This document shows, in pieces, positions 14,471-50,269 of a stretch of DNA of 64,000 nucleotides. A program made the position numbers and the translations under genes. The notes below the pieces were generated by a model that was given only the letters and a program-made list of their open reading frames with translations, ran no database searches and had not been told where the DNA came from. The first letter of the stretch is position 1, and every line of letters begins with the position of its first letter. This DNA comes from Raillietiella orientalis (Eukaryota), in contig JAYWIR010000082.1 of the NCBI GenBank assembly GCA_036172245.1, forward strand, positions 1 through 64,000, read 5' to 3'.

Positions 14471-14599
14471 GTTAAAGAAATGGCGCGCTGCATTTTACGA
14501 GTAGCATCCAAACGTACTTCAATGCTCGAGAAAATTTCCACTATCATACGAGATCTGTGATTTTTTGCATACTTTTTCTTTGCTACTTTCGATCTACAA

Positions 14600-14960
14600 A
14601 CTTAAGAAGCGGCGAAGAAGGGGCGGGGGAGTGGAGAACGGCGCCAAGAAGCGGAGATGGTGTGCGGCGGCAGGAGGCAAAGGACAGCCCAGCAAATTGG
14701 TGAGCAGCCTGAGCGATGTCCAAGCGCCAGTTGGCGCCATGCCTCCACTCTTGCACAGGTGCTGGCTGTGGTGGAGGGAAGGGAATCTTCCGCTTGCCCG
14801 GAAGCAACGGATGTTGCCCTCGTCGCGAACAGGAGTCCAATGAGACCGAATCCATGTTATCAATGGAACCGTCAAAGTTTTTCAGGTCCGTCATTGATAC
14901 TCCATTTCAGACAAAAATGTTGGAATTGATTTTTCAATCATTGGTAATAAACAAATGTTA
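14600..14960 (-). mobile_element. L1/Tx1-like ORF2 fragment spanning the outer edge of the left palindrome arm
   Basis: IRCFRASGRFPSLHHSQHLCKSGGMAPTGAWT resembles IRCIPAIISYRFLKHNQPLCDSSGMEPPGAFT at 16.8 kb and carries a GGL/M-P-type motif seen after the RT domain of L1 ORF2. Confidence 0.5.
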
Positions 14961-20779: not shown

Positions 20780-21900
20780 CAGGAAACGTATGCACCTATC
20801 TTTCCGGGATTGTTGGGAAAAAGCATTTCTGAGCACGGAAGTGCAGACTGCGATCTCTCCCGGAATGCTTGGGATTCTATTACTGGATCCATCCATGTGA
20901 CGATTTCCACAGCAATCTCTACGTGGGAGAGACTGTGAAAACTCACGGGTTGAGTGCGTTCTGAGCGTTTTCGAGAGGCGCCCACGACTCACCTCGCACA
21001 TCGACCCGAGCGGAGATGAATGCATGCCGTGAGCAACATTCGGAATTCCTCGTTCTTCTCGGGGTGCAATGCTTCGAGGAGTTCCTGTCATCTTCACAGG
21101 CATCTTCCTGCATTGCTGTTGGACGAGTAGCGTAGAACTGAAGTTCCGGCTGTACACCAGCTGGAACTTGGATGAATGGAAAAACTTTCCCACTTCTATC
21201 ACCTTAAATGAGGACGTTTGTCAGCAAGAGTGGCTGACGGAAAGGAAGGAGTGATTTTCGCTAGGCGCGTCTTCCCACAGAAGCGGACCCACCCACGCTC
21301 ACGTTGCGCGTTCAGCATCCCTGCCGCTCTCCCGCCTCCGACGAAGTGCGCTGGAACTCTGCCATGCTGCAGCGCTCCTGTCATGCCTCCGGTAGGCAAC
21401 CGCGGTGGTCTCTGCCACACAAGGCGCACCCGGCTGCTTCGATCGGTCAGACTCATTGTGGGTTCCTCCAGCGTTGCTCCTGCAGAGAATCGTTTGGCTG
21501 GTTACAAGCAAGGGGTCTCCCGTGATCACGTGTTTCCGGCGCACTTGCAAGTGTCGCGGACTGCTTCCGGCAGGGACGCGTTCCGGCCCGCAGGCCTCAA
21601 GGCGGAAAGGCAGCGCTGGTCAGCCAAGAGTGGAACACCGAGTTGAGGGCGCACGCAGTTTTCTTTCGATGCGGGAGCGAGCCAACGACAAACGAGCGTA
21701 AGGAAAGGCGTGGGAAGCCCCGAGTCTGCTTGGGCGGCACCCAGCGAGCACAACGGACGGTTCCTCTCCCGTTCTGTCGACCTAGTTGCGCGGGCCTGCG
21801 CTCCCCCGTCTCGACCGCACCTGCCGACGCCCCTGCTGTACCAGCGGGAAACTCGAGCGCTGCTCACAAGCTCGGCGTTCGCGTCTTTCCGTGGCCGTTC
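20780..21900 (+). mobile_element. Heavily decayed RT/post-RT fragment, probably the same L1/Tx1 family (mirror 55092-56212)
   Basis: HPCDDF at a YADD-like position followed by LSVFER. WNLDEWKNFPTSI resembles TDLKNFDGSI of the 14.9 kb copy. Confidence 0.3.
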
Positions 21901-22789
21901 CTTCCATCGAGCCCGTAACCGTTCAGCTTGGCCGGTCGAAAATTTACGAATCGTCGAAAAGAACGCAGAATCGGGGAACGTGAGAGCTCCCCGACGTTCA
22001 TGGGCTCGCGCAACGCGTCCGTTCCGAATGACCCCAGTCTTTCGCCTTCGTTACCACCGTGCTCTGCACTTGCACACTCTGCGGGGCGCCATTGCAAGTT
22101 AGCAGCCAAGTGCGCTAGGCTGCGCAGGGCAACTAGCCCTGAGGGAGCACATCGACAGCGTGAGGTTCACTTTCGTGGTCCACAACCCGCGCAGTCTGTG
22201 CAGGCAACAGATTCGGGATCTGAAAATGAACCTCTCGCGATTGCGGCGCACTGCAATGCGAGGGACGATGGGCGCTTCTTGTCGGCTGCACCACCGCTGA
22301 AAAGCTCCATTCGTATGCACTTGTGCGACGACGGACGCGAAATAGGGACTCCTTGCTGCTACGTCCGCAACGTGCCGGAGAAATTCAAGTGACAGCGGTT
22401 CTACAGGCTACTCGCCAGTATAGGAGACGACCGATCGGTGGCACTTTCGGGATGCAGCGCGGGTGCATCCATCTGCACGATGAAGGCATCACCCGAATCT
22501 CCCTTCGTTCACACTTTGATGATGAACGTTGTCCCGAGTGATTCGCTTCAGAGTCTCCTACGGGATCAACACTTTGAGGGCGCAAGCCCTTGTGTTTGTA
22601 GCAGTGTGAGTAGCGTGTGAGAGGTAGGGATGCACATTACTTTGTGCTGTCGTCCTTTCGTCATGAGGAAGAGCGCAAGCGATGTTACTGTACATTCGGT
22701 GCTACTTGCACTTGACACTTATCCTTTCAGGCCGGTTCATTTGCCCAAGACGAAGACGAAATGAAACACCTACGAAGACAACCGCAAAC

Positions 22790-22915
22790 ATCCCTTCGAA
22801 TTTTGTTTGTCCGTTCCCATGCAAATGCGGATTCTGTTGCAGCAGTTGCGAGAAGAGTTATGGAAAGCACGGAACCAAAGTATGTCCTAGTCCAAGATGC
22901 AACAAAGAATGGGAA
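22790..22915 (+). pseudogene. Cys-rich RING-finger-like fragment (mirror 54077-54202)
   Basis: FPCKCGFCCSSCEKSYGKHGTKVCPSPRCNKEW has the spacing of the second half of a RING domain (CxC..CxxC..CPxxxC). Confidence 0.35.
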
Positions 22916-23287
22916 GCATTCAAAGGGTCTGGTCCATTGACACGGCGGCAGCTTCACCGATTAGCAGGAACGGATACTGATGAGCAGCGTAAATCCCGAC
23001 CAATTTCCATCCTTCATGTTGGCCATGTGAATTGCTTATCGGTAACCAATAAAAGGCGTTCCCGTTGACTTGTACCATATGGAGATCCGATAAGGAATCG
23101 ACATCCTGGTCAATCGTTCGTAAAAGACGTTGACAACATATGTTGCCTACTTTGTGGTTGCGCCTGACATTGGCTTGCATTGGTCCAAAGTTCGGACGTT
23201 CGCTGGAGAGCGTTTTTGAAGGGATGGAGCAGCGCGTAGCAGCTTTGCCGCCTGAGGAGGAGGAAACCAATCATTCGAGTGTCGCAT

Positions 23288-23780
23288 TAACACCCGGATG
23301 TGCCGGTGCATTTATTTAAGAATTACATTAAAAATACATTAAGCTTTCTCGCGCTGAACCCAAGGGCTCACCACGTCACATCAACTTGCAGTTTGCCGGT
23401 GCAAAGACCGGCGAGGTCCATCCACTGCGCAGCGGTAGGGAAAAAACAAATAAAGAAACACAAAGTGAAACGTGGTGAGTATAGGGACCCGTGAGGGTGA
23501 GGAGAGCAGAAAGGGGATTACATTGCGCGTGGAGCGGTCCTCTGGATCCCGTTCAGGATCCTAGCAAGTTGCGTCCTAGCTGCATCCAGGTAGGGCTACC
23601 TGGAGATGTTCCGCACAAAGATGCGCGTCCAATGGATGCGCATCTCCGCCATTCCTGCCTCTTCTGGACGCGTACCATGCCGCCACGACTCCACGAATGC
23701 AGCATAGCTCCAATACAGACGCGGCCGGGGGCAAGGCGGCACGCGAAAAGAGTCTCCTGAAAATGTCCCTGGAGCCAATG
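23288..23780 (-). mobile_element. L1/Tx1-like 3' end (mirror 53212-53704, plus strand)
   Basis: IHWTRIFVRNISR*PYLDAARTQLARILNGIQRTAP matches IHWTTISLETATRWRLPPMLKAELGCILNRMRRTDP. The UTR has GGACCTCGCCGGT and AATAAATGCACCGGCACATCCGGG. Confidence 0.75.
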
Positions 23781-25319
23781 TTCAGGATCTTCGCAAGACG
23801 ACTTCAGAGGGGACGAAGGGCGATGCAGTCCACAAGAAGGTGGCAGTCGTCCTCCTGAGCCATAGCAGGAAGACGGATCTTCCGTCCCAACCGCAGAAGG
23901 GAGGACGGACGGCGGGTGTGTACGCTTTCGTCTTTGCGTTCTCTGCAGCAGAAGATGAGACCTGCATGAGATGCTTGCGCTCCCAGCTGTCCGCTACGAG
24001 TGCGAAAGCCAGCAGCAGCAACTCAGGAGCGACATCCTCTCCCGGCGTCGCCTTCCCCCACATCCCCACCGCGCCGCCTGCTTTCGACCCTGCTCGGGCC
24101 GCCGCCTCCTCGGGAAAGCCAAGGGCAGGCTGCGAGCCGCCACCGCTGCCACCGCCCTAGTGAGCCTAGCGATCGCGATCCAACCGCCCCCGCGTCGCCA
24201 TCTGCCGCTCCGCCAGACCGGTGGGCGAGTGCGCTGCCACCCTGCTGCCCGCGACGGACGCTCGGATCGGAGGCCGAGCTGGGCGGTCGAACAGAGTCGT
24301 CGCTTCCGACCGCTGCGGAGTGAGTGGGCCGTTGCCGTCATCGCGTCTCCCCTGCTCGAGAATCCCAGGAAGCGAACCTCTTCGTGCCTTTCAGGTCTGC
24401 GTCGTGACGAACGTCCGGCATGCGGGCATCCTCTTCGCGCCCCTCCTATGCACGTCTCTCGTCGTGTCCGAATATTACGACTACGACGGCTACGGAAGTC
24501 ATCCCTGACGTCTTGCTGCCTTCGGTGTCCAAGGCAGCCTCCGCCGCGCGACGGGAGTGCAGATGCTGCTTCCGGAAGACCGAACCCCCTCCTCCTTGAA
24601 GAAGCCAGGCTTCTGCACCTCCTCTTCTCTTGGCCACCAGCCACACCTTTGGCACACCGGTCTTCCATGGTCGCGGCAGCAGAATCCGCCATCTCCTTTG
24701 GCGTCTCTTCTCTGCAAGCCACAGCTCGTCTCCAGACGCACGGATCCCTTCGCTGACTCTGCAAGCACCGTTCTCCTCGCTCAAAGGCAAAAACGTCTTT
24801 GTCGGGGTCCTGCATCCGGACGGTCGGCGTCGCGTGCCTTTCTTGATTGCTGCAAGCATCCATTCCAGCTTGCGTAGAGATTCCTCTTCCCTTTGTGCCT
24901 ACTTGGTTCCTATGCGCGCGCGTTTTCCCACGCGGCTGCGGGAATACGAGCGCAGCCCCTCCGTTTCGACGGGCGGGAATCGCGTGCGCGGGCTTTCAGG
25001 CGGCCGCAGAAGGAGCAGCTCGTCAGCCGCCTCGGTCCATCCGCTTGACGGCTCCACGTTCTGCACAGGGAAGGCGAAGCCGCGTGGCGCTGCCTCCCAG
25101 ACCGTGCACCAGGCGACTGGCAGACCGTGCGTCGAACGAACGGGGAGCACGTGAAATTTCTTCCCCTTCGTCCCGTCCGCGCTCCCGGAATTCTTGGTTG
25201 CTGCGAGCGGCGTGCGCATCTGCCGCACAGGAAGACCGGCTGTTCCGCGCGCAGCAGCGAAAGAGGGAGTTGGAGGCTGCTGCTTCCGTTCCCGTGATGG
25301 AGACCTCCGCTCCCACTGA

Positions 25320-26470
25320 TGGGCAGCTCGTCTTCCTGCTGGACAGAAGTTTCGCCGGAGTCGCTGCCGCTGCCATATGGTGTCCGAAGGCCCAAAGTTG
25401 CGGGCGTATGGGACCCTACAAGCCCGCACTCGGCTGCGAGATGAGTCACCGTGTGCCTGGGCGCCTCGAGTGGGCGTTCGCAGGGAGGGTGCTTCCCTCC
25501 TTCCTGTTCGTACGCGGCTGTCGGGTAGGGACGCGCTTCTTACGCATCAAGTGCTGCAAGCGTTGCTGACCATCCAGGAGCGAATGGTCGTTCCCGCAGC
25601 TGAGCTCCAATCTCTCGTCGTCCAATCAAGTGAGGTTGAGCGCCACCTCGAACCGTTGCGGACCTCGAACTGTTTCGCATCCTGGCGCAGAGCGCTCGCC
25701 GCTGTCTGCGCTCTGTCGAGAAAATCGAACCTTGTCAAGTGGTTCGAAGACATTCGCCACAGTGACAGTGGCGAAGCGGCTCGCCATCCCCACACGACTA
25801 CAGTCGGATGAGGCAACTGCCAAGCATCCGTGTGCGTGCGGCTAATGCGGCAAGGAAAGATAACAGAAGATGAGGTGTGCCTCCGTGGATTGCCGGCGCT
25901 GCCACGAGTACGAATACACAATGGCGAGGTGCCCGAAATTCGTGGAACAGGAGAAAAGAAGAGGTGAGTGGGCCGAAACTCCGAAATCGTGACAGCAAAA
26001 AAGTCTGCAAAAGCGTAAACCCCAAGTTCCAGCAGCGTCGCGAGAGCAGAAGAGGATGCCATCCCGTGAGCCTCCGTACCAAATGCTGCAGAGCCGCACG
26101 GTAGGAAACACGGCGGAGTAAGAGCAGCGCGTCTCTCCAGCACTCCCGAAACCAGGGACTACGCCTTGGTGAGCGCGATCCTAGAATTCCCGTTTCTTGA
26201 GGACGCCCGGCGGTGGGGTGATTGGTGGCCGGAGGCGGCAGCAGGATCGGATGTACAGCTTTCCTGATTTCGGAATTCGAGAGGCATCTCCCGTGTATTC
26301 TAGGTTGGTACACGCACTTCTGGAAGGAAAGTGTGCGCGACGAATATCATGGCAAAGGAAGAGTCGGCCAAACAAAACGGGGTCGGATGCCGGGACCCGA
26401 AAACAAGATAAGCAGATGGATGAACTGAACTCTGACAAATAGGCGTTTTTGCTTCCGTCGCTCACTGGAC
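25320..26470 (+). other. Putative endogenous toti-like dsRNA virus RdRp relic (frameshifted)
   Basis: Ordered motif-like segments across frames: LSRKSNLVKWFEDIR (motif 1), WIAGAAT (motif 2), KHGGVRA..STPETRDYALVSAILE (motif 3), MYSFPDF (motif 4, DxxDF-like), ISRWMN*TLTNR. Confidence 0.45.
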
Positions 26471-26722
26471 AGCCGGAGTAAGTTCTCGACGAAAGATGAC
26501 GTCACCGGAGTTGAGCTTTCCGCATCAGCTCAGCATCCGAGCTTCACGTGCCGCTTGCAGCTTGCGGTCGGCCGATTCATCGAGGTACTGCAGAATCGTG
26601 CAGCCACTCGTGCGAGAAAGATGGCTGTGGTGACAACCCGGACCGCATCCTTTCCCCAGTGGATTCGTCCGCCGTGCACGTGGTGGCAGAACGGCAGCCT
26701 GAGCGTTTATCGAGGGTGAAGT

Positions 26723-27710
26723 AGCTCGTTGATGCAGAAAAATCTCACAAAGTAGCTGCATTTCCAGTTAAGCATCATCTGCTGGTCTCCCCTAAGTATG
26801 TGGAACCGAAATCCCTGGTGTGCATTTCATCCGTTTGATAACTTTAGGGAACACAGGATTTTCACCCATCCGCATTTGAACAAGTGCGATGTTTTGTATC
26901 ATCGATTAAGTTCGTGTTCAAAGAACTTTCTCGTGTTCGATGCTTTGAGCATCAAGTCAAACGAGAGAGAATGAACATCGAGCACTTTTCGTCAAGAAAA
27001 GGAATGCGCGAATGCACTGAGATGCTTGCTGTTCTTCTTTACATTGAATGTTCTTCAAATTTGCTGTTGTTGATTCGGCCCTTACGGCAGCTGTGTAGTT
27101 AACAGTCATGCAAAGCAATTGAAATGCGGTCTGATGAAGAAGGCGAGCCTATGCATGGGAACGTCGTGTTAGTGACAGGTCAAATATATTGGTGCTCCAC
27201 AAGAGGATAGCATTTCTTTCGGACACTTGGCAGTATTGCAATGAAGAGCTCTTCACTTCATGCTCAGCGATTGAAAAGAGTGGGAAGTGACCAGCAGTGG
27301 GATTGTTCGTAGCATGAAGCATGCCCAGTCATCAATGGAAATTTTCATCTGCACAACATGGCACTCTTGAAAGATTTGGGAAAAAATCGAGAATTTTGGA
27401 AATGGATTGGCTTGAACTGCTGACCGGATGATTAGCAGCATGCTTCTGAATGTGCAGACGTGGAATCGGAAGGAAATCCATTAGTTTGTATTGGTCCATA
27501 GACTGAAGCATTCTTGGAAGGTCAAACGGAGTGATGGGACGATGAAACGGAGCGGTTTTACACGGTTTACCGCTCTGAATACAAAAATAAGTGTTTTGAG
27601 CATAACCGTTCATCTCCATTGATTGAGGCGACCAAGTTTTTTTTCAATCAGCTGGGTGCACAGAATCAAAGGTGGGCTACTCGGGTGGAATGAGGTGACA
27701 AGAAAAGATG
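26723..27710 (+). pseudogene. Older diverged duplicate of the DHODH exon 2 3' part plus ~0.9 kb of intron 2
   Basis: Colinear with 39374-40361 (GATGCAGAAAAATCTCACA...GTGACAAGAAAAGATG) with many substitutions. It has no other DHODH exons. Confidence 0.92.
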
Positions 27711-28451
27711 TGCGTGCGGCTAATGCGAACCCAACCGCTCCGTGGCGTCAGTTTCTTCTGCCTGAGCAGTCGATCCCGCGACTCCTGCTGCCACGCGCGG
27801 AAGCCTTAACCACAAAGCCTCCGACGCGGGCACTCGCCATTTTCCCCAATCCCACATGGGGTGGGGTGAATTTATTTCCTCATTCATTCACGCTGCATGC
27901 TGGAAGTGACGAAAGTCACCGCCGCACTTGCACTTTGAAAAGTGACTGCGCTTAGGTATGCACTGGGGGAAAACAGGAGTTGAGTGTGCCTGGACGATGT
28001 CCTAGATCCAGGCAGGCACTTTTCCGCAGTTTCTTGTTCCTGTCTCTTTCCGGATGAGTCCCGAATCAGAAAGAACCCAAATGCCTTCCCTACAAACGTA
28101 CCTTATTCGTGCCTGCATCAGGGAGACGTTTGTAAATGGATTTGCATCTTTTATAGCCACGACGCACAGTAGTCTTCCTGCAGTGGCACTTTAGCGCTTC
28201 TCCCCACCAACCGCACGCCCTTAGTTTACTCGCAAACCTTGTCGTTCCCTCCCACAGTCCTAGCTAGGGTCAGCCAAATCTCCAGCTTTCGGTATTCGAC
28301 TCACTTATCTTCGTGGAAGGGCTTTTTCCAATTGCTGAAAAAAACATCCAATATTTGCTGGCATCTAAACTAGAATGCACATCAAGAAGAAAGTGACTTG
28401 AATTTCTTATTCGTTTAGTGTACCCAAGATAATACCAATATCCAGTGTTTT

Positions 28452-28837
28452 TGGACGCATTTTGTTACATATAAATGCATAAAATGGATGTGTACGGACT
28501 GCGTGGAAGTGTGACTGTTCCTACGAAGGCAAAAACACGCTCGTGATCAATCCGGATGAATGTATTGATTGCGGATACCTGAATGCCCAGTGGATGCAAT
28601 TGTAACCGATGGCTCCACAAAAGGTACTTTGGAATTAGATGAGGAGTCACTGAGCAGCGAACAAGAAACTTTCAATTTCTTCCAACGATATAAGTGCAGA
28701 ATACTCGAAAAAGTGGCCAAATATGACAGCAACCCCTGCAACCAAAGAGCAATTTCAAAAGCAGCCTCTGGATACTGCAGAAGAGCATGTAGAAAAAAAT
28801 GGACAAAGCAGCTTATTGTGATGAAAATCTGAGGTAG
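28452..28837 (+). pseudogene. fdxA: Bacterial (Wolbachia/Rickettsiales-like) 7Fe/4Fe-4S ferredoxin pseudogene
   Basis: [74 protein letters not shown]. It has lost its start codon and carries stops and indels, and has no introns. Confidence 0.88.
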
Positions 28838-29054
28838 CGTTACTGAGGGGAGAAAGAAACTTCTTGTATCTCGCGCTATCTGTTTTTGGTTTTGGTCGAA
28901 ATGGTTGCATTTTTGGGGTTTTCCATATTATTCCATACCAAACTGATGCTAATCCGTTAAAACGCAGTAGAACGGAAATTGTCAAATTTTCGGTGAATCT
29001 AAATTACTTCAGCAGGTTTCTATTGAAGATAGGAGCACCTTTCATAGCAAAATA

Positions 29055-29740
29055 TAGAGCGCTTGTGGTTGCAACCACAGCAATTTCAAGTGGGGGATTC
29101 TCTCGTGAAAGGGAAATTCTCGTCGCTGATGAGCGGAAAAGCAGTGAAGAAGGCACTTGATTGTCTTTCATATAATGCAATAGAAATAGATGTTGATATC
29201 GACATTTTTGAAAAGCTGAAAAAAGCTGATTCTGATTTTGGTTTTATTGCTCTGCATGGATCTTCCGGAGAAGATGGCTGCATTCAAGGTTTATTATAGA
29301 TTTTAGGTATAAAATAGACACATTCAGGAGTCATGGCTTCGGCTGTCGCTATGAACGAAGCAATGTCCAAGCATGTATTTCAGTCCTCGGTATTGATACC
29401 CCAAAGGGTCACGTAATTACTCGAGAAGATATGCGAAAAGACAACATCAAAATTGGCTGTCCGTACGTCCTGATGACCGATCATTGAAGGCTCAAGCGTA
29501 GGACTTTTTTTTTTTTTAATTTTCTCGCTCGTCTCAGATTAAAAAAACGTGCTTGCTGTCAATCCAGCGCGTGACGCTGCAATTCAGGAAGCAGAATGGT
29601 CATCCACTTGAATGACAAGGGATTATAGAAGTTTGTGGATCGGGTGTAGAGTTACACACGGCTGCATTGCTAGATGTATCCGAATGGAAAACCAAAAAAG
29701 AATGGCAACTATGAATGCTAACGGCTAACCATGGATTAGA
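29055..29740 (+). pseudogene. ddl: Bacterial (Wolbachia-like) D-alanine--D-alanine ligase pseudogene, 3' truncated
   Basis: [96 protein letters not shown], with multiple stops and frameshifts. Confidence 0.92.
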
Positions 29741-30599
29741 AATAGAAAAAAGGATGAATGTCGATAGCCTATCATTCTAGCATTAATAAAAAAAAGCAGC
29801 CGATGGGCCCCTAACTTTGAGTGACAAGAATCTCACTACTTTTCACGAATTGAATGAAAATTCAAGACTTTCTACAGTTTGCATGTTTTCAGTCAGCCAG
29901 CACAGGCAATGAATTGCTGCTTCTAAATACGAGTGCGTTTGTTTGTTTTTTTTAAAGAAGGATTGTCCATAGGTTGCTCCTAGGCTTGAGCATCAATAGT
30001 GTTATTGATTTTGGCAACCCAGTGTTTTCAACTTGGTGTTTTTTGATTTTATTAAGCAAAGGTTTGCTATGCATGGAATGAAAAGCTTTTTGGAAGATGA
30101 AATCAGCCCTGAGTGGATGAAGCGTTAGAAAAAAAGAACTTCCAGATGAGACTTGTGATCAAGAGTTAGAAAAAGGCATGGGAGATATTCCAGAGTCCCC
30201 TGTTGGAAAGAAAGAAAATCGTAGCATTCTATAATTTTCTCACAAATGGGAAGGAATTGGTCCAGGCCGGAATGGGAACGGTTACCATATCGCTTTGAAA
30301 TGGTGCACATCCAAAGGATCGAATTTCAGGTACCAATTGTCTTGGAGGAGGAATTGCAACGGGAGTGGTGAGCAAAGTGTTGAAAGTATTAAGACCGTGG
30401 TGATGCGGGATGATTAACGGCATGTAAATTACCTCCTTGCAGTGAAGCAAGAGCATCGAGCGTGCAAAAGGGTCATTAAGATCCCATGTGAATTGGAGTA
30501 TAATGCTGTTTTGCATCCGTGTAGTTAATTTTTTTGACTTTATAAACAAGAGATAAGAAATCCGTGATAATAATCATGTCGATGGATACGTTCATGCCC

Positions 30600-31138
30600 T
30601 TCACGCATGAGCCGGACGTGTTTGGCGCGGTTTTGACGTATGGAGTGCGTTCCCCTCCATGCGCACTTGAAGGCGCTCGCGTGTCCACGCTCGCTCTTCG
30701 CTTCCCTGGACACCGTTGTCCAGGTGCCGCCTTCTTCCCCTGGATTCTCCCCAGACTTCTTTCCAGGGGTAACGCTTTCCTCCGCCGCGCCCTCTTCTTC
30801 CGCGGAGTTCGCCTCGCGAGTCGGGGGCTGTTCCCAATTAGGGCGAGAAGCCTCTGCTGGGTTTGCAGGGCATACCCGACTCCGAGAGACAGAGGCCGTT
30901 CTTCCCGTGTTTTTTTTGTTATTTGTTTATTTATTGTCCCCTTCATCTGTTCTTTACTTGTATGGAAGCCGGCCTGCTTGCCGGTGGTCGTCGCCGACGA
31001 ACTTCTTTCACTTTTTGTTTTTTTCTCGGGAGGGAGGCGGGGGAGAATCTTTTGTATTCAGGGGACGCCGTTTCCTCCCTCCTTCCGGAATTGTGGTTTA
31101 TTTTTTAAATAAGCATCCCGGCGTCACCAGGTGAAAAC
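30600..31138 (+). mobile_element. Diverged L1/Tx1-like 3' end (mirror ~45856-46394)
   Basis: RRALFFRG resembles RRLFLRN. T-rich UTR, hairpin CCGGC-CTGCTT-GCCGG and terminal AAATAAGCATCCCGGCGTCACCAGGTGAAAAC. Confidence 0.5.
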
Positions 31139-33287
31139 CACCTTCGCATCGGAATCGCTTCGCAACCAATCGTCCAGCAGGGAACAACAACAACCTCTGC
31201 TTCCCGGAGACGGTGTTCGGGAAGGCGACGAAGGAGCGGGCCGGCTCCGAGGAGCTGACGAAAAGGGCACGTGAGGCACGGGCCGCGCCGCCAAGGAACA
31301 GCAACAGTCGAGAATCGACGCGCTCTTCCCGTCGCGGTCCAAGGGAGAGCGCCCTTGAAGTAAGGAGCAGCACCACTCCCAGCGGAGCTCCGACGGGCTT
31401 CAAGGTCATCCAGCGAGCAGTGCAGGTGCTGCGCCCACGGTCATCGAATGAGTGGTGTGGGCGCGCGCGCTTCCGACTTTGAGGCCTGCCGTCGCGGTGC
31501 TCTGCCACGCGCGAGACCTTGCGTATGGCCGGCGCATGGAAGAGGCGCGCGCGCGCTCGTGTCGCGAGGATGCACCAGGCTTTCTCCGAATCCTGCCGGG
31601 AAGGGAGTCTGCCGAACAAGTTCGCTGGATGGAGTAGACCTCCAGAAGGTAGCCTTCCCAGAGTTCCTCGCAGTTCCCAATCCTGAGTGTGCGCTCTCAG
31701 GAGTTAGATCGTCTGCTAGTGGAGACACCAGTCGTTCGGAAGGTGCCGGGGGTTGGCCGGAGGTCGAGGGCGCCAGCACCTACCGGTTAGCTCGCGTGGA
31801 TGGTCGGAGAGCGACCGATGGGAGCAAGCAGGCGCGTTCCGCCACCCGCGATTGGAGGTGCTTGCGTACGTGCCCGGCCAGTCAGCTGCTGAAGTCCGCG
31901 TTCGCACGGAAGAGTCCCCGCCGCGGAACCAAGCCGTCCCCGCTGTCGGCCCCCACGGACGACGGGGAAGACCTTTCCGCTAGGCCGCAGAGTGGCGTGC
32001 TTTCCACCCCGCTCAAGTTTGACGACTTTCAACCGTCCTGCTTCGGAGGGGAGGGGGAACGGAAGCCTGTGGGAAGCCAGCCATCCCTTCAGGGACGTTT
32101 GGCGGAGGGAAATGGACATCCAGGCATTTCTGGAAGGACGATCGGGTTCGATCTTCCGCCTGGAGTCTGCGAGAGCGCTCATCCTCGCTGCCGGACTCAG
32201 CCGACACAATCGCTTCCGCAGCGCATCCCCCGCGTGGACTACGCGTGCTCGTCTGAATAAAGGCAGTCGCTTGAAAAGGTCACGAAAAAAACAAAGTCGG
32301 ATGGATGTGTTGCACCAGAACAGAATGGAAACAGCAAGAAAATTGGCTTGCCACGTTCCGCCCAAATTGCAACATTCCAAAATTCACCCAAATTTTCACG
32401 CATTTCCATTCCAAATTCACCCAAAGTTCGACGCACGCTAAGCACGATGGATGGATGATGCCCGGCTACGAGCGCATGACTGTAAACTTGTTTCCCATGC
32501 TACCGAACAGGAAATTCGCTGGTCTTGTAAACAGCCCTTCTCCTCCAGTGCCGGAAACTGACGCGAAGAAAATAGAACATAAACTCCACAATGCAGTGAT
32601 GAAATCTTCTCTGATGCTTGCCAAGCAAGTAGGTGATTCTCAATTCAAAGAGCACAGGTGAAACAAAACAGGCGACGCGACAGCAAGAATCACGATGCAA
32701 TCAACTACGATATGCGTTCGAACCGATTTCGCACTGCCAACCATGTGCTGGTTGGCTCGCTTGCCACTGTGGGGTCACCCAATAGAAATAAGGTTAATGT
32801 GAATAAAGGCACATGGATGGCATGCCTACACATGTTCCCGTGTTCCATTTTGTGACCAGTGCAAACCGCAGCTGATCAAAAGTATGGACTCCTGAAACTC
32901 CAAGCTCGTGACATTCTTCAGCAACACCCTACACCATTGGTTGCAAATTTTTCCCAGTACGAGAGGGTCACTGTACATAACCTTTTACTAACTTTCACAG
33001 GAATCAAAAAATACTCTATTTCTGAACAACTGGATTCCAAAATTGATGCTTGGGGAGATGAGAGACTCGAGAATCATACGGCAGAGAGCTCCCTCTCAAA
33101 GCTCTGCTCAGCAAGAGCACGAGTGAATTTTTGGTGAATCTGCAAGTCACCCATGCAAGGGAAATCATGACTACCAACTTGAAGCACAAGTCATGATGCA
33201 CGTTAATCAGGAAAACTTGGCATACAGCGTTGCAGTCCATCCATTTCTGTTCTACCCACTCCGGTGCACGTTAAAAAGGAAGGTGGA

Positions 33288-34885
33288 TCAATAACGACGT
33301 CGTTTAATAATGTCCGGTTTCCACGTTATGGGGTGAGTCTCTTCAGTCTAAGGAAGAATGCTGACATGCAAACAATCGATGCAGATTGACTTACGGCAGT
33401 TTCATCCTCTCGGAAGATTTTGATGGTTTTATCGGCATCTGTTGTTATCAGCCTGCTGTTACTCAAATCAAATGTGAGTGAGAAAATTCCAGCTTCACTG
33501 TCCATGGACCCAGGCTGCACAGGGGCCTGGAGTCTTTGGAAATTGTATCCTGTGCGCCAATCCCAAAAATGAAGGGTGCCATTATCACCACCAGATACCA
33601 AAACACCATCGCTATTGACAGTCAGACAGTTAATGATGGCATTGTGCCCAACCAGATTTTGAATAAATCGTCCTTCGGGGCATTTCCACTGTTTGATGTT
33701 ATCAGGAGAAGCGGATGCAAACATGTACAGACTAGGATGCAAAATCACAGAACGAACGCTTTTCTTGTGGTTGGTCAGCGTTGTACGACATTTGCCTGCT
33801 GATAAATCCCACAGCCGGATAGTGCAGTCATGGCTTCCCGTGATGACTTCTGGTTCAGTTGCTTGGCAAACTACATCAGCAACTGTGTTAGTGTGGCCTG
33901 TCAGAGTATGTATATTGGCTTTGGTACGCATATCCCAAACACGGGCTACGGAGTCACGTCCACAAGTGACCAGCACATCAATGGTGGGATGCAAGTCAAT
34001 GCCATACACAGCACTCAAGTGACCATGATAATGGCGAATGACCTTATTGTACTCTAAATCCCAGCATTTGACCTGTCGATCTTCTCCACAACTGAACAAG
34101 TATGGCTGCCTTGGGCTGACAACAAGGCCTCGCACTGTGCTCACATGACCAGTTAAGGATAACTTGAGCTTCCCACTAGCTAGATCCCAGATCTAGCCAA
34201 ATCAACATTCTTGATGCATTCCAACACTCTTAAACAGGCTTACCTTGATAACTCGATCTGCAGCACCAGTGCAAAACCATTTGTTTTGTGGCTCCATAGC
34301 CACACAGCGAACCCATCCCAGATGACCACTGATTACTCTATGAAGCTTCCAAGGAGGATGCCAGGTAGGTTTGGGCATAGCAAGTGGTTTTCTAGGAACT
34401 ACAGCAGATGGGCTGGTCATAACAGTGGACTGAGGTGCTGGTGATTTTGGCACTCCTACTGGGGCAGGGACCAATGCTGTTTCGCTTGAAACATCATTTT
34501 CTGAGAAACAATGAAACAAAGTAAAGGTGCTCTCCCCCCCACTCCCACCCGCATCTATGCACACCAACCTTTCAGCTGTTCTTCCTCAACAACATGGACT
34601 TTTTTTTCTTTAGACACTAGATGGCGTACTGCCTGGTAGAAATCTCGCGTCTTGCATGCTAATCGCAAACTGTGCCTAAAGAACACCACTTTAGAGTGCA
34701 GGCAGATAATTCCTGAAATATTACCCTTTAGGATCAAGAGGAGCAAGGTTGCCTTGATCAGACAGAAACATGTCATGGCTCCTCTTCAGTGATCGAAACA
34801 CCAACGTGTGCACAGAATGTCTCTGCACATCCTAAAAAATACTTAACACACAGAATTGTCAGCAACTTGCACTGACCTCCCCCAT
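33288..34885 (-). CDS. PLRG1: Pleiotropic regulator 1 / Prp46 WD40 splicing factor, left-arm copy (6 exons)
   Basis: Mirror of 42111-43708 with identical ORF translations. Confidence 0.95.
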
Positions 34886-35074: not shown

Positions 35075-37653
35075 TCATTTCATCCCTGACTGCAAGGAGA
35101 GATCCACATCAACACCAACAGCATCTTCCAAACTTACGAAGCCATCAGCACTATAATGAACAAACAACAAGTAATCCAACATTCGCACAATGAAGCATTA
35201 AACCTCAAAAGTGCTTCGAGCTCTTGTTTAATTCGTGGTACCACAGGAGGACCATAGAATGCTAAAGCTGTATACAGCTGAATTAATGATGCCCCAGCTC
35301 GGATTTTTTCGTAAGCATCTCGTCCACTACTAACGCCTCCCACACCTATGATCGGTATTCTGCCTTGTGTAAGGAGATACATATCGGAAATCATCTTTGT
35401 AGACATCTCTCTCAATGGGGGTCCACTGAGACCTCCTTCCTCTTTTGAAAACCCATCCCGAAGATCAGGCCGTTCTACTGTTGTGTTACAAATCACCAAA
35501 CCATCCACCTGCACTACAGTGGCAGATCCGCTACATCAATGCTTACATACCGAAAGCTCTTTACACACTTGAGCAATCTCCTCTCTTTCATGAGGCTTGA
35601 GATCAGGAGCTAGTTTTAGTAAAATAGGCAGATTCTTGTGCCCAGATATGCTGTTCCTGGTTTCCAAAACAACAGTTAGCAATTCTCGTAATTTGCCTTG
35701 CAATTGAAAAGCACGCAAGCCCACAGTATTTGGACTAAATGAGAACTCGAAATCGATCCCACACTATTCCACTTACCTAGAAACATTGATTACAATATAA
35801 TCAGCAACATTCGAGAATAATTTCACCCCAGATATATAGTCTTCAACTGGAAAAACACTATTCTTGTTGCACCCCAAATTCACGCCAATAATTCCCTTAT
35901 AGCCAGAGCCACGTAATTTCATCAATCGCCTGTACACCTTCAAGTACCCATCACTATTGAAGCCATATCTACATATGCTAATCAAAAGAATGCAAATGAA
36001 TGGAAATTGTTACCTATTAATAATTGCCTTATCTTTGATCAGACGAAAAACTCGTGGGGGAGATGAACCCGGTTGAGGATGCATCGTAACAGAACCAACC
36101 TCCACCCAACCAAAGCCTAGCTTTATCAATCCGGTGCAGCATTCCCCTTGTTTGTCAAAACCTGCTGCTATTCCAATCGGGTTAGCAAACTGCAAACCCC
36201 AAACACATGTATTCTGGAACACAAGCAACTACCATAACCACACTGATGCAAAAAACAGATTGACCCAAACATGCAGCAACACCTGACAAATAGCATTATT
36301 GTGCTACTCCTTACAATATGAAGCACACCAAAGGAAAGAAGGTTGAGCATTCCGAATGCTGTGACAGCACAAATGTCAAAGAAAAGGGAAAAGGGTTGCA
36401 TGTTCCATGAACTTTTTGCCATGAATATACGCAGCAAGATGCACAGGATTTTCTATCCAGTGCAAGTAATCAATACAGGAATAAAATAAAGGAATTTTAT
36501 ATTCTTCAGAATCGATATTGAATTCCACTTCATGAGACCTTCATACATTCCAACTTCTTTAGCATGGATCAAACTCAGTCTGATCAACTCACTCCAATTG
36601 GCAAGGTACAACATCTTGCCACTTGCATCATCGGCATCTTTTCTTGTCACAATTCCACCTGAGTACCTCACCTTTCAATTTCTGCACTCAGATGATCAAA
36701 AAAAAAACTTCGTCACTTCAAGCATTGGAGATGAACAGTTATGCTCAAAACACTTATTTTTGTTTTCAGAGTGGTAAACCGTGTAAAACCGCTCCGTTTC
36801 ATCATCCCATCACTCCGTTTGACCTTCCAAGAATGCTTCAGTCTATGGACCTATACAAACTAATGCATTTCCTTTCAATTCCATGTCTGCACATTCAGAA
36901 GCATGCTGCTAATCATCCTGTCAGCAGTTCAAGCCAATCCATTTCCAAAATTCTCCATATTTTTCCAAATCTTTCAAGAGTGCCATGTTGTGCAGATGAA
37001 AATTTCCATTGATGACTGGGCATGCTTCATGCTACGAACAATCCCACTGTTGGTCACTTCCCACTCTTTTCAATCGCTGAGCATGAAGTGAAGAGCTCTT
37101 CATTGCAATACTGCCGAGTGTCCGAAAGAAATGCTATCCTCTTGTGGAGCACCAATATATTTGGCCTGTCACTAACACGACGTTCCCATGCATAGGCTCG
37201 CCTTCTTCATCAGACCGCATTTCAATAGGTTTGCATGACTGTTAACTACACAGCTGCCGTAAGGGCCGAATCAACAACAACAAATTTGAAGAACATTCAA
37301 TGTAAAGAAGAACAGCAAGCATCTCAGTGCATTCGCGCATTCCTTTTCTTGACGAAAAATGCTCGATGCTCATTCTCTCTCGTTTGACTTGATGCTCAAA
37401 GCATCGAACACGAGAAAGTTCTTTGAACACGAACTTAATCGATGATACAAAACATCGCACTTGTTCAAATGCGGATGGGTGAAAATCCTGTGTTCCCTAA
37501 AGTTATCAAACGGATGAAATACACACCAGGGATTTCGGATCCAAATACTTGGGGGAAAACAGCAGATGATGCTTAACTAGAAATACAGCTAACTTGTGAG
37601 ATTTTTCTGCATCAGTGAGCTGGATGAACGGCATAAGCAACCTGGTATAAAAT
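35075..37653 (-). pseudogene. DHODH: 5'-truncated DHODH copy lacking exon 1 and the start of exon 2; downstream frame intact, in-frame ATG at 37634
   Basis: Mirror of 39342-41921. Homology stops at the arm end inside exon 2. One substitution at 37615 changes Ile to Thr. Confidence 0.85.
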
Positions 37654-39341
37654 TTTTGCTCTTAAGAGATGCACACAGATGGATGACATTAATTTCAGAC
37701 CCACACCAAAGTGCAAGGGACTACAGGAAATAATGTCATCCATCTGAGAAATAAAAAATCGCGCACTCCTTAAAAAAGAAATGTTCATCTGTTTCTTTAT
37801 TTGATTTGAAATCCATAATTACAATATGCACTCTTTATAATAATCTTTTCAACATATAATTTTTAGATACAATTGGTGTGACAAACAAGTTTAGTAGGGT
37901 GTATAAAACGCTTACGTTTCGATATTGCCGAAGAAGAAGAGCATGAGCTAATTGGACAATCTGAATTCCCAAGAACTCTGAATGGACATTTAGCACGCTA
38001 GACACAGCAGAACACCAAAAATGAGCTGTAACATAATAACATGTCAATTAGTGCGCCTCGTTATTTTCGCATCTGATGGGTAGTCAGGATTCTCAAGAAT
38101 CGCGCTTTTTTCAATGGATTCATACATTCATACAGGATTCACTTCTAGCCTGTGTTTTCTATCTTTTCTCATTTTATATAGTTATCGTTTATTTGTTTTT
38201 CCTGGAATGCATTGTGATCAGTTATATATTATTTTGAGCATTGTTCGCAGATTTCTGGATTTGCTATTTTTGTTTAGATCTTAGATGTTTTTTTTCTTCT
38301 GTTTTTGCTTACATTCCTTTTCTGAAGGAACTTCAGTATTCTCCTATGCTTCCAGCTCCATGTCTTTACGATTACACGATTTATTTCAGACATTACTTAT
38401 TTATAATCCTGCCATTTCTTATGGAGTTTTCAGCACTGAAGCTCCTTATTTTGAAGTTAGCAGCATTCTCTAACAGTTTCTTTATAAGTATAATTAGTTA
38501 TCAAGAAACAGTTGCAGAACTGTATCGAAAACTATTACATTACATGCATTCGTAGGAGATTATACGAACAATGTTGCATTATTTTCCATGAAGTTGAAAT
38601 CCATTCTCCAACTAATTCTGATTGCTTGACTCCAAGTCAAGAAATTCCACTCAAGGTTTCGAAAAACATTTTAATCTGTCTTTCTTTGCTTACAATAAAA
38701 CAAATATCAAAGATTCTATCGAGAGTTGCTGTTGTTTAATATGATATCGTAAGACATTTGTGATAATCACACTCTATGAAAGATCCTGATGAAGTATGAT
38801 TTTTGAAGACACATTTGTAAGACGATCTACTACTCAAGCAAAAGGTGCTTATGTGATGATGACTTAAAATTTGTAGTAGAAATAAAGTGGTTGGGTTATC
38901 ATGGAATCAAGTACGAACATAAACTACACTTTGGGCCAGAGTACTCTAGGTATTCAAGCGAAACTTAATGCTCGGTTCTCGTCGAGTGCCCTGCAGTTTC
39001 ATTGATCACGTGATTGAGTTGGTGATCCTCTGAGTAGATGAGATCTGTTGTGAGTCGGTTTCCGTTTAAGAGCCAGTTGATAAGTTTTCGAAAAAGTTAC
39101 GGCCAGATGATTGTGATGTACATCTGCAGAATAACTCCATGAGTACATAAATGTTAGAAATGTTTCGTGGTAAATTGTCTTTCTGTGGTAACTTGATTTA
39201 TGAGTATTTTAATGTAAGATTATGCATATAGTTCATGCTCTCTTATCTGAATAATTTCTAGAAGCCAAAAACATGGTGCATTGTTGTGACTGGCGGTGTC
39301 TTGACTTTATCTGGCTTATGCTTTTATAGAGGAGAGGAGAC
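37654..39341. other. Unique AT-rich palindrome spacer (1688 bp) containing the DHODH upstream region and 5' end
   Basis: No mirror symmetry here. The DHODH N-terminal coding sequence is at its right edge. Confidence 0.9.
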
Positions 39342-41921
39342 ATTTTATACCAGGTTGCTTATGCCGTTCATCCAGCTCATTGATGCAGAAAAATCTCACA
39401 AGTTAGCTGTATTTCTAGTTAAGCATCATCTGCTGTTTTCCCCCAAGTATTTGGATCCGAAATCCCTGGTGTGTATTTCATCCGTTTGATAACTTTAGGG
39501 AACACAGGATTTTCACCCATCCGCATTTGAACAAGTGCGATGTTTTGTATCATCGATTAAGTTCGTGTTCAAAGAACTTTCTCGTGTTCGATGCTTTGAG
39601 CATCAAGTCAAACGAGAGAGAATGAGCATCGAGCATTTTTCGTCAAGAAAAGGAATGCGCGAATGCACTGAGATGCTTGCTGTTCTTCTTTACATTGAAT
39701 GTTCTTCAAATTTGTTGTTGTTGATTCGGCCCTTACGGCAGCTGTGTAGTTAACAGTCATGCAAACCTATTGAAATGCGGTCTGATGAAGAAGGCGAGCC
39801 TATGCATGGGAACGTCGTGTTAGTGACAGGCCAAATATATTGGTGCTCCACAAGAGGATAGCATTTCTTTCGGACACTCGGCAGTATTGCAATGAAGAGC
39901 TCTTCACTTCATGCTCAGCGATTGAAAAGAGTGGGAAGTGACCAACAGTGGGATTGTTCGTAGCATGAAGCATGCCCAGTCATCAATGGAAATTTTCATC
40001 TGCACAACATGGCACTCTTGAAAGATTTGGAAAAATATGGAGAATTTTGGAAATGGATTGGCTTGAACTGCTGACAGGATGATTAGCAGCATGCTTCTGA
40101 ATGTGCAGACATGGAATTGAAAGGAAATGCATTAGTTTGTATAGGTCCATAGACTGAAGCATTCTTGGAAGGTCAAACGGAGTGATGGGATGATGAAACG
40201 GAGCGGTTTTACACGGTTTACCACTCTGAAAACAAAAATAAGTGTTTTGAGCATAACTGTTCATCTCCAATGCTTGAAGTGACGAAGTTTTTTTTTTTGA
40301 TCATCTGAGTGCAGAAATTGAAAGGTGAGGTACTCAGGTGGAATTGTGACAAGAAAAGATGCCGATGATGCAAGTGGCAAGATGTTGTACCTTGCCAATT
40401 GGAGTGAGTTGATCAGACTGAGTTTGATCCATGCTAAAGAAGTTGGAATGTATGAAGGTCTCATGAAGTGGAATTCAATATCGATTCTGAAGAATATAAA
40501 ATTCCTTTATTTTATTCCTGTATTGATTACTTGCACTGGATAGAAAATCCTGTGCATCTTGCTGCGTATATTCATGGCAAAAAGTTCATGGAACATGCAA
40601 CCCTTTTCCCTTTTCTTTGACATTTGTGCTGTCACAGCATTCGGAATGCTCAACCTTCTTTCCTTTGGTGTGCTTCATATTGTAAGGAGTAGCACAATAA
40701 TGCTATTTGTCAGGTGTTGCTGCATGTTTGGGTCAATCTGTTTTTTGCATCAGTGTGGTTATGGTAGTTGCTTGTGTTCCAGAATACATGTGTTTGGGGT
40801 TTGCAGTTTGCTAACCCGATTGGAATAGCAGCAGGTTTTGACAAACAAGGGGAATGCTGCACCGGATTGATAAAGCTAGGCTTTGGTTGGGTGGAGGTTG
40901 GTTCTGTTACGATGCATCCTCAACCGGGTTCATCTCCCCCACGAGTTTTTCGTCTGATCAAAGATAAGGCAATTATTAATAGGTAACAATTTCCATTCAT
41001 TTGCATTCTTTTGATTAGCATATGTAGATATGGCTTCAATAGTGATGGGTACTTGAAGGTGTACAGGCGATTGATGAAATTACGTGGCTCTGGCTATAAG
41101 GGAATTATTGGCGTGAATTTGGGGTGCAACAAGAATAGTGTTTTTCCAGTTGAAGACTATATATCTGGGGTGAAATTATTCTCGAATGTTGCTGATTATA
41201 TTGTAATCAATGTTTCTAGGTAAGTGGAATAGTGTGGGATCGATTTCGAGTTCTCATTTAGTCCAAATACTGTGGGCTTGCGTGCTTTTCAATTGCAAGG
41301 CAAATTACGAGAATTGCTAACTGTTGTTTTGGAAACCAGGAACAGCATATCTGGGCACAAGAATCTGCCTATTTTACTAAAACTAGCTCCTGATCTCAAG
41401 CCTCATGAAAGAGAGGAGATTGCTCAAGTGTGTAAAGAGCTTTCGGTATGTAAGCATTGATGTAGCGGATCTGCCACTGTAGTGCAGGTGGATGGTTTGG
41501 TGATTTGTAACACAACAGTAGAACGGCCTGATCTTCGGGATGGGTTTTCAAAAGAGGAAGGAGGTCTCAGTGGACCCCCATTGAGAGAGATGTCTACAAA
41601 GATGATTTCCGATATGTATCTCCTTACACAAGGCAGAATACCGATCATAGGTGTGGGAGGCGTTAGTAGTGGACGAGATGCTTACGAAAAAATCCGAGCT
41701 GGGGCATCATTAATTCAGCTGTATACAGCTTTAGCATTCTATGGTCCTCCTGTGGTACCACGAATTAAACAAGAGCTCGAAGCACTTTTGAGGTTTAATG
41801 CTTCATTGTGCGAATGTTGGATTACTTGTTGTTTGTTCATTATAGTGCTGATGGCTTCGTAAGTTTGGAAGATGCTGTTGGTGTTGATGTGGATCTCTCC
41901 TTGCAGTCAGGGATGAAATGA
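39151..41921 (+). CDS. DHODH: Dihydroorotate dehydrogenase (quinone), mitochondrial, class 2. Exons 39151-39213 (tentative), 39262-39468, 40783-40982, 41028-41219, 41262-41445, 41488-41792, 41846-41921; ~408 aa
   Basis: Motifs [56 protein letters not shown] and [10 protein letters not shown], with an N-terminal hydrophobic anchor. All introns are GT-AG and restore the frame. Confidence 0.95.
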
Positions 41922-42110: not shown

Positions 42111-43708
42111 ATGGGGGAGGTCAGTGCAAGTTGCTGACAATTCTGTGTGTTAAGTATTTTTTAGGATGTGCAGAGACATTCTGTGCACACGTTGGTGTTT
42201 CGATCACTGAAGAGGAGCCATGACATGTTTCTGTCTGATCAAGGCAACCTTGCTCCTCTTGATCCTAAAGGGTAATATTTCAGGAATTATCTGCCTGCAC
42301 TCTAAAGTGGTGTTCTTTAGGCACAGTTTGCGATTAGCATGCAAGACGCGAGATTTCTACCAGGCAGTACGCCATCTAGTGTCTAAAGAAAAAAAAGTCC
42401 ATGTTGTTGAGGAAGAACAGCTGAAAGGTTGGTGTGCATAGATGCGGGTGGGAGTGGGGGGGAGAGCACCTTTACTTTGTTTCATTGTTTCTCAGAAAAT
42501 GATGTTTCAAGCGAAACAGCATTGGTCCCTGCCCCAGTAGGAGTGCCAAAATCACCAGCACCTCAGTCCACTGTTATGACCAGCCCATCTGCTGTAGTTC
42601 CTAGAAAACCACTTGCTATGCCCAAACCTACCTGGCATCCTCCTTGGAAGCTTCATAGAGTAATCAGTGGTCATCTGGGATGGGTTCGCTGTGTGGCTAT
42701 GGAGCCACAAAACAAATGGTTTTGCACTGGTGCTGCAGATCGAGTTATCAAGGTAAGCCTGTTTAAGAGTGTTGGAATGCATCAAGAATGTTGATTTGGC
42801 TAGATCTGGGATCTAGCTAGTGGGAAGCTCAAGTTATCCTTAACTGGTCATGTGAGCACAGTGCGAGGCCTTGTTGTCAGCCCAAGGCAGCCATACTTGT
42901 TCAGTTGTGGAGAAGATCGACAGGTCAAATGCTGGGATTTAGAGTACAATAAGGTCATTCGCCATTATCATGGTCACTTGAGTGCTGTGTATGGCATTGA
43001 CTTGCATCCCACCATTGATGTGCTGGTCACTTGTGGACGTGACTCCGTAGCCCGTGTTTGGGATATGCGTACCAAAGCCAATATACATACTCTGACAGGC
43101 CACACTAACACAGTTGCTGATGTAGTTTGCCAAGCAACTGAACCAGAAGTCATCACGGGAAGCCATGACTGCACTATCCGGCTGTGGGATTTATCAGCAG
43201 GCAAATGTCGTACAACGCTGACCAACCACAAGAAAAGCGTTCGTTCTGTGATTTTGCATCCTAGTCTGTACATGTTTGCATCCGCTTCTCCTGATAACAT
43301 CAAACAGTGGAAATGCCCCGAAGGACGATTTATTCAAAATCTGGTTGGGCACAATGCCATCATTAACTGTCTGACTGTCAATAGCGATGGTGTTTTGGTA
43401 TCTGGTGGTGATAATGGCACCCTTCATTTTTGGGATTGGCGCACAGGATACAATTTCCAAAGACTCCAGGCCCCTGTGCAGCCTGGGTCCATGGACAGTG
43501 AAGCTGGAATTTTCTCACTCACATTTGATTTGAGTAACAGCAGGCTGATAACAACAGATGCCGATAAAACCATCAAAATCTTCCGAGAGGATGAAACTGC
43601 CGTAAGTCAATCTGCATCGATTGTTTGCATGTCAGCATTCTTCCTTAGACTGAAGAGACTCACCCCATAACGTGGAAACCGGACATTATTAAACGACGTC
43701 GTTATTGA
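42111..43708 (+). CDS. PLRG1: Pleiotropic regulator 1 / Prp46. Exons 42111-42119, 42165-42271, 42321-42427, 42496-42752, 42804-43601, 43649-43708
   Basis: [26 protein letters not shown]-terminus, [26 protein letters not shown]40 repeats, [12 protein letters not shown], and C-terminus [23 protein letters not shown] introns of 45-68 bp. Confidence 0.97.
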
Positions 43709-49281: not shown

Positions 49282-50269
49282 CATCTTTTCTTGTCACCTC
49301 ATTCCACCCGAGTAGCCCACCTTTGATTCTGTGCACCCAGCTGATTGAAAAAAAACTTGGTCGCCTCAATCAATGGAGATGAACGGTTATGCTCAAAACA
49401 CTTATTTTTGTATTCAGAGCGGTAAACCGTGTAAAACCGCTCCGTTTCATCGTCCCATCACTCCGTTTGACCTTCCAAGAATGCTTCAGTCTATGGACCA
49501 ATACAAACTAATGGATTTCCTTCCGATTCCACGTCTGCACATTCAGAAGCATGCTGCTAATCATCCGGTCAGCAGTTCAAGCCAATCCATTTCCAAAATT
49601 CTCGATTTTTTCCCAAATCTTTCAAGAGTGCCATGTTGTGCAGATGAAAATTTCCATTGATGACTGGGCATGCTTCATGCTACGAACAATCCCACTGCTG
49701 GTCACTTCCCACTCTTTTCAATCGCTGAGCATGAAGTGAAGAGCTCTTCATTGCAATACTGCCAAGTGTCCGAAAGAAATGCTATCCTCTTGTGGAGCAC
49801 CAATATATTTGACCTGTCACTAACACGACGTTCCCATGCATAGGCTCGCCTTCTTCATCAGACCGCATTTCAATTGCTTTGCATGACTGTTAACTACACA
49901 GCTGCCGTAAGGGCCGAATCAACAACAGCAAATTTGAAGAACATTCAATGTAAAGAAGAACAGCAAGCATCTCAGTGCATTCGCGCATTCCTTTTCTTGA
50001 CGAAAAGTGCTCGATGTTCATTCTCTCTCGTTTGACTTGATGCTCAAAGCATCGAACACGAGAAAGTTCTTTGAACACGAACTTAATCGATGATACAAAA
50101 CATCGCACTTGTTCAAATGCGGATGGGTGAAAATCCTGTGTTCCCTAAAGTTATCAAACGGATGAAATGCACACCAGGGATTTCGGTTCCACATACTTAG
50201 GGGAGACCAGCAGATGATGCTTAACTGGAAATGCAGCTACTTTGTGAGATTTTTCTGCATCAACGAGCT
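49282..50269 (-). pseudogene. Mirror copy of the DHODH exon 2/intron 2 duplicate
   Basis: Reverse complement of 26723-27710. Confidence 0.92.

Follow-up and report, generated by a model that had tools for sequence, protein, structure and literature searches.

Palindromic inverted duplications with a single-copy spacer are an already known class of structure, and several described systems can be set beside a new case. In the flip-flop of the plastid inverted repeat, a single individual contains both isomers at roughly the same level. For primate X palindromes, Jackson et al. (2021; PMC8327919) report spacer inversion in about 50% of the species comparisons, by way of intrachromatid non-allelic homologous recombination (NAHR). 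Regarding fold-back inverted duplications, all 21 sequenced junctions described by Hermetz et al. (2014; PMC3907307) have spacers, of 766 to 70,466 bp (median 3,428 bp). Break-induced replication (BIR) and microhomology-mediated BIR (MMBIR) are described as error-prone, point mutations being acquired together with the rearrangement, and inverted repeats are presented in the same account as "crucibles" of rearrangement that promote such events (Beck et al., 2015; PMC4352052). The locus considered here is a 47,645-bp palindrome (mirror-image duplication) from Raillietiella orientalis, contained in a 64,000-nt window (i.e., the whole stretch of DNA analysed) of contig JAYWIR010000082.1, one arm boundary of which falls within the DHODH gene. 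Its native junctions lie on opposite arms, and the first-pass annotation of this DNA had taken this arrangement as the mark of a spacer flipped by crossover between the arms, invoking the same mechanism as in the primate palindromes. The comparison below carries a caution of method: a pattern of native junctions does not by itself reveal a spacer inversion, the standard routes of inverted duplication giving both patterns.

The palindrome is composed of two arms, the limits of which come from base-by-base comparison, and of the spacer that they enclose:

14674-37653, plus strand: left arm, 22,980 bp
37654-39341, plus strand: unique spacer, 1,688 bp, 34.6% GC
39342-62318, minus strand: right arm, reverse-complementary to the left one

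The two arms are covered by one blastn alignment of 22,981 columns with 99.97% identity, 2 mismatches and 3 gap openings, and a repeat finder returns them as four abutting inverted blocks, each 100% complementary; the window contains no N bases. One substitution opposes C at 14685 in the left arm to A at 62307 in the right arm, and the other G at 37615 (left) to A at 39380 (right), while the three length differences concern a run of T (29505), a GC dinucleotide repeat (31545) and a run of A (36697). Zero substitutions are found in the 22.9-kb interior of the arms. The locus therefore presents long inverted arms more than 99% identical around a unique spacer, and these arms are suited in both length and identity to homologous exchange. 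Beyond the arm ends, no residual homology is found between the two outer flanks (score of 21, against a shuffle mean of 21.6) or between the two halves of the spacer (25, against 23.3), and all four boundaries are thus sharp breakpoints. The possibility that they are mere limits of conversion inside a longer, diverged repeat was considered and rejected, flanks and spacer halves alike scoring at shuffle level. The GC content is 41.5% in the inner 3 kb of the arm, 50.4% in the whole arm and 50-54% in the flanks; in this comparison of arms with flanks no uniform GC enrichment of the arms is seen, and hence there is no pointer to long-running GC-biased conversion. At the inner junctions the only tandem repeat is one of 17 bp, located inside the spacer. 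No look-alikes of 35500-41500, 62319-62887 or 14400-14900 were found in the other genomes and windows compared.

The state of the inner junctions can be read from DHODH, the parts of which are distributed as follows:

39262-39468, plus strand: DHODH exon 2, 69 codons, crossing the native right inner junction 39341/39342
37527-37653, minus strand: truncated left copy of DHODH exon 2, without codons 1-26 and part of codon 27, with a derived G at 37615 (Ile to Thr)
37653/37654, no strand: J1, the novel head-to-head junction joining the left arm to the far end of the spacer
39038-39049, plus strand: candidate coding part of DHODH exon 1, an ATG and three codons followed by a GTGAGT donor, as read from the sequence only
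35137-36228, minus strand: DHODH exons in the left arm, four open reading frames (ORFs), Pfam PF01180, profile positions 4-291
within 40768-41862, plus strand: further exons of the complete DHODH (right arm plus spacer), mirroring those of the left arm

Exon 2 is an open frame which starts after a "ttctag" acceptor and stops at a GT donor, and its 69 residues match residues 14-74 of human DHODH (E 4e-4), i.e., the transmembrane helix and the first helices. The arm boundary 39341/39342 is located within codon 27 of this exon, and the alignment with the human protein covers both sides of it; conserved DHODH coding sequence being present on either side, this inner junction of the right arm is native. 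At its start the left copy reads "...FYTRLLMPF", and an in-frame stop is found just upstream, in unrelated AT-rich sequence of the spacer. Since the left DHODH frame is broken at 37653/37654, J1 is a breakpoint. The same reading of the inner ends, native on the right and broken on the left, had been given in the first-pass annotation, which had also designated the spacer as holding the only DHODH 5' end. This too holds within the window: the spacer carries the first 80 nt of exon 2 together with candidate exon 1, and searches with blastn (word 7) and tblastx return nothing but its match to itself. As to the short inverted microhomology (2-8 bp) expected at the junctions of fold-back cases, 2 bp ("AT") can be counted at J1 only if the right flank is the former neighbour of the left end of the spacer; among the simulated spacers of Hermetz et al. 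(2014; PMC3907307), microhomology of at least 2 bp arose in 134 out of 1000.

At the outer ends, the evidence is provided by a 220-bp element, named "a", and by its paralogue "a prime":

14607-14673, plus strand: outer part of element "a", forming the last 67 bp of the left flank; the element continues into the left arm
16770-16986, minus strand: paralogue "a prime", inverted relative to 14607-14826; outgroup for the left outer junction and for the outer substitution
62318/62319, no strand: J2, where the right arm has its novel outer junction, cutting element "a", with the probably derived A at 62307 lying 11 bp inside
62319-63395, plus strand: right flank, with 62319-62887 having no match in the window and 62888-63395 being a repeat copy

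Positions 14607-14826 and 16986-16770 form an inverted alignment (score 88), 67 bp of which belong to the left flank and not to the arm. The left flank alone matches 16971-16928 with 79.5% identity (E 3e-4), this match occupying the extreme end of the flank and being colinear with the one found within the arm. When compared with the continuation of the paralogue, the last 100 bp of the left flank reach a score of 46, attained by none of 1000 dinucleotide shuffles (mean 16.3, maximum 27), whereas the score of the right flank's first 100 bp is 11, a value reached by 997 of the 1000 shuffles. Element "a" is therefore whole across 14673/14674 and cut at 62318/62319. A left arm native at its outer end had indeed been proposed from a paralogous element near 16920-16990, with a right flank devoid of it; the element exists in the place given, and what had been left unsaid is that its orientation is inverted relative to 14607-14826. 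J2 is blunt. From 14607 outwards "a" and "a prime" are no longer similar, and a sharp change of composition, from AT-rich to GC-rich, adjoins this point. As a source of the left outer junction, NAHR between two "a" copies was also considered, and was rejected on finding no trace of the element in the right flank. The repeat copy at 62888-63395 sits 570 bp outside the right arm; together with the copies at 18939-19443 and 23291-23770 it forms a set with about 66-68% nucleotide identity, in which the similarity starts at approximately the same point.

The explanation favoured here, tentatively and with somewhat less than even confidence, is that of a genuine 23-kb inverted duplication produced by a fold-back or template-switch event, in which the spacer has kept the orientation of its formation and the opposite-arm pattern is a by-product. 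The ancestral locus would have been F_L - A - Sr - Z (F_L being the left flank and A the arm), where Sr held the 5' end of a minus-strand DHODH, and the present structure can be written F_L - A / S - A' / F_R, with F_R as the right flank and the slashes marking J1 and J2. It would thus consist of two native blocks placed head to head at J1, the left flank plus arm on the one hand and the arm plus spacer with the intact DHODH on the other, the far end of the second block (A + Sr) being joined to F_R at J2. By the fold-back route, a break would be followed by fold-back and by replication to a dicentric F-A-Sr-A'-F', symmetric apart from the spacer, and then by a second break. If this second break fell on the side of the novel inner junction, one arm would be left native at both ends. 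If it fell on the other, spacer-contiguous side, the full arm would have a native flank and a novel inner junction, and the truncated arm a native inner end and a novel outer end. It is this latter, opposite-arm outcome which corresponds to the pattern seen; the two outcomes are equally expected, so that it should result from about half of the events without any crossover (a derivation made here, and not taken from PMC3907307). By the template-switch route, replication would proceed forward to position a (not the element of that name), switch to the other strand at a+s, copy in return as far as 0 and then switch to F_R. Two novel junctions would be created, the same count as in the "simple duplication" of the first-pass annotation.

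As the standard routes of formation give both patterns, opposite-arm native junctions are not diagnostic of a flip, and the argument that after a simple duplication one arm is native at both ends, and that a flip must hence have taken place, does not follow. A signature that only a flip would leave is absent from this locus. If formation yields either pattern with about the same likelihood, how probable a net flip is depends on the dynamics of flipping alone, with one half as the upper limit. Two features of fold-back cases are found here: inverted copies surround a single-copy spacer whose 1,688 bp lie inside the range of 766-70,466 bp published for the junctions of PMC3907307, and one inversion-type junction (J1) is accompanied by a second junction (J2) from the end of a copy to unrelated DNA.

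The position of the two substitutions adds to this picture. One is located 11 bp from the outer arm end and the other 39 bp from the inner arm end, an arrangement with a chance of 1.2e-5 for two random sites. The ancestral state can be sought in "a prime" for the outer site and, for the inner site, in an older repeat contained in the arms:

26723-27710, plus strand: older inverted copy of DHODH exon 2 (3' part) and intron 2, about 990 bp, 94.6% identical to 36635-37621

This inverted pair of about 990 bp is mirrored in the right arm at 49282-50269 and 39374-40361. At the inner site the older copy, used as outgroup, has the base of the right arm, and the G at 37615 of the left arm, changing Ile to Thr, is therefore derived. 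At the outer site "a prime" has the base of the left arm, and the A at 62307 of the right arm is probably the derived one. Each derived base adjoins a novel junction, either J1 or J2, on the very arm that bears this junction. Such a placement suggests error-prone formation of the junctions or an edge effect of conversion. The copied segment of the older pair ends at 37621 (39374 in the right arm), 32 bp from the arm boundary at 37653, a proximity with about a 1% chance for an unrelated 1-kb repeat; this suggests that the pre-existing 990-bp inverted pair may have stalled replication or formed a hairpin, thereby triggering the switch at J1. Two breakpoints of inverted duplications are in any case located within about 30 bp in the same DHODH exon. 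Mutation in arthropods proceeds at about 3e-9 per site per generation. At this rate an unconverted pair of 22.9-kb arms without interior substitution would have an age below roughly 2e4 generations, an estimate bound to the general rate on which it is calculated.

Several considerations weigh against formation in the present orientation, or against the replicative origin proposed with it. The polarity of the substitutions depends on one outgroup copy each, and the outer outgroup is about 70-80% identical (about 75% around the site) and stands beside an indel; moreover, chance alone would place both derived alleles next to novel junctions 1 time in 4. Arm-to-arm conversion in an older palindrome would likewise be expected to leave substitutions only at the arm edges. 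The junctions and the orientation of the spacer are those of a single assembly's sequence. With regard to mechanism, the dicentric intermediate needs a healing step, and in a break-and-join view the other isomer, with a fragment inserted into one break, is slightly simpler.

The main rival reading is that the duplication was first native at both ends of one arm (left flank - arm - spacer with DHODH on the minus strand - inverted copy - right flank) and that a crossover between the arms then inverted the spacer, in which case the two isomers may coexist. It is a possible history, albeit a rather doubtful one. The junction pattern on which it was built is confirmed at both ends, 23-kb arms with an identical interior are an ideal substrate for NAHR, and spacers of primate X palindromes are described as inverted in about half of the species comparisons and as polymorphic in humans (PMC8327919). 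A flip should also be neutral: DHODH should stay intact in either orientation of the spacer, because the inner arm ends move with the spacer in a crossover and the downstream exons of the two arms are identical. No sign of an orientation-dependent DHODH switch is apparent, both gene bodies being identical as far as their sequences tell. However, the pattern is equally expected without a flip, the history requires one more event than direct formation, and the adjacency that it predicts, of the right flank with the left end of the spacer, shows no shared element, repeat or continuous reading frame in blastn and tblastx searches. Arms of this length and identity should undergo NAHR flips; taken as a whole, the proposal of a flip is partly supported, i.e., compatible with the data and not required by them. 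Should flips be recurrent, with both isomers coexisting, the lone DHODH promoter, exon 1 and half of exon 2 would be joined alternately to either gene body. This prospect is likewise open to considerable doubt. If true, it would mean that an essential housekeeping gene is reconstituted across a palindrome boundary in either orientation, and that the two derived substitutions and the breakpoint located 32 bp from an older inverted repeat are the preserved scar of an error-prone replicative origin triggered by inverted repeats.

Two further explanations are both unlikely. According to one of them, the palindrome was trimmed secondarily, either by an asymmetric central deletion which removed exons 1-2 of the left DHODH or by a later deletion or replacement of the outer end of the right arm, so that one junction is a later scar and a flip is not needed. 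Structural changes and deletions in primate X palindromes are reported to concentrate at the spacer and inner arm, mostly by means other than NAHR (PMC8327919), and here each substitution adjoins a putative scar; the point 14607, where the similarity of "a" and "a prime" stops beside the composition shift, could then be where a formerly longer left arm had its true outer breakpoint. Yet such trimming needs a third breakpoint event, and neither the spacer nor the right flank, followed to position 64000, retains any remnant of additional arm sequence. The other, no less improbable, is an artefact of assembly, in which the palindrome or one of its junctions arose from chimeric reads, or in which a real palindrome was given an arbitrarily oriented spacer. 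The latter had rightly been conceded in the first-pass annotation, as both isomers share every local junction sequence and the spacer would be oriented only by reads which span the 23-kb arm or chain arm differences. The interior differences, moreover, are all changes of run length (T run, GC repeat, A run), as in the consensus noise of long reads. Against an artefact, the flank beyond the right arm is different sequence and no mirror of the left one, so that a second chimeric junction would be required for a simple fold-back chimera; the substitutions near the junctions are placed non-randomly; and the arms are not byte-identical, so they are not one collapsed node written twice.

Apart from DHODH, the gene content of the palindrome was surveyed by a Pfam scan of 219 stop-to-stop ORFs of at least 70 aa from 11500-39400 and 62200-64000 (112 + 107). 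Only DHODH (4 ORFs), WD40 (2 ORFs) and a fragment of D-Ala-D-Ala ligase (1 ORF) are above the Pfam cut-off, matches to DUF243 and CBM64 being below it; among these ORFs, no gene spanning either outer junction was found. The features concerned are:

33329-34585, minus strand: PLRG1-like WD40 gene of the left arm, Pfam WD40
42411-43670, plus strand: PLRG1-like WD40 gene of the right arm, mirrored copy
29048-29296, plus strand: fragment of the N-terminal domain of D-Ala-D-Ala ligase (Dala_Dala_lig_N, PF01820), E 1.9e-8, mirrored in the right arm

The palindrome thus holds a PLRG1-like WD40 splicing-factor gene twice, in identical copies, with a single 288-codon exon encoding most of the propeller. 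The region 14674-33000 and its mirror, about 18 kb per arm, is for a large part of 52-63% GC and contains many long ORFs on both strands, none of which is above the Pfam cut-off apart from the ligase fragment. Outside the palindrome, a 278-bp satellite at 1-8452 (30.4 copies, 95% matches) abuts a 277-bp array at 8509-11437 (10.6 copies, 79% matches). The latter is the unit of the 278-bp satellite in opposite orientation and more diverged, with a head-to-head centre near 8.45-8.5 kb.

Beyond the question of the flip, the locus offers a clean natural example of a young or homogenised palindrome whose boundary bisects an essential gene. It also combines an older inverted repeat ending 32 bp from a breakpoint with point differences that are found only beside the two novel junctions. 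With long reads from several individuals, it would be a simple system in which to follow the rates of spacer flipping outside mammalian sex chromosomes.

Set against the systems described above, the palindrome shares traits with each of them and is identical to none. Like the plastid inverted repeat, it has a single-copy segment between long identical inverted repeats which can be inverted without changing the local junction sequence; unlike it, it is represented by a single orientation in one assembly. With the primate X and Y palindromes as described in PMC8327919 it has in common kilobase-scale arms more than 99.9% identical, a unique spacer and the presence of genes. It differs from them in that its arm boundary cuts an essential housekeeping gene and in that its content is not a testis gene family, and conversion and inversion are no more than possible processes in the present one, known from a single assembly sequence. 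The fold-back cases of PMC3907307 resemble it in their two inverted copies, short single-copy spacer, one inversion-type junction and second junction to unrelated DNA. Unlike those cases, it is found in an arthropod assembly, is interstitial within the window, has arms of 23 kb and not of megabases, and shows no terminal deletion or translocation partner in the window. Finally, with respect to the rearrangements attributed to template switching after fork stalling (FoSTeS) or MMBIR (Beck et al., 2015; PMC4352052), its product is a duplication - single copy - inverted duplication, unlike the structures treated there (DUP-TRP/INV-DUP, with an inverted triplication between duplications), and a replicative origin would be drawn from two substitutions only. 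Like those rearrangements, however, it has a breakpoint 32 bp from a 990-bp inverted pair, a blunt J2, at most 2 bp of putative microhomology at J1, and point changes near its junctions.

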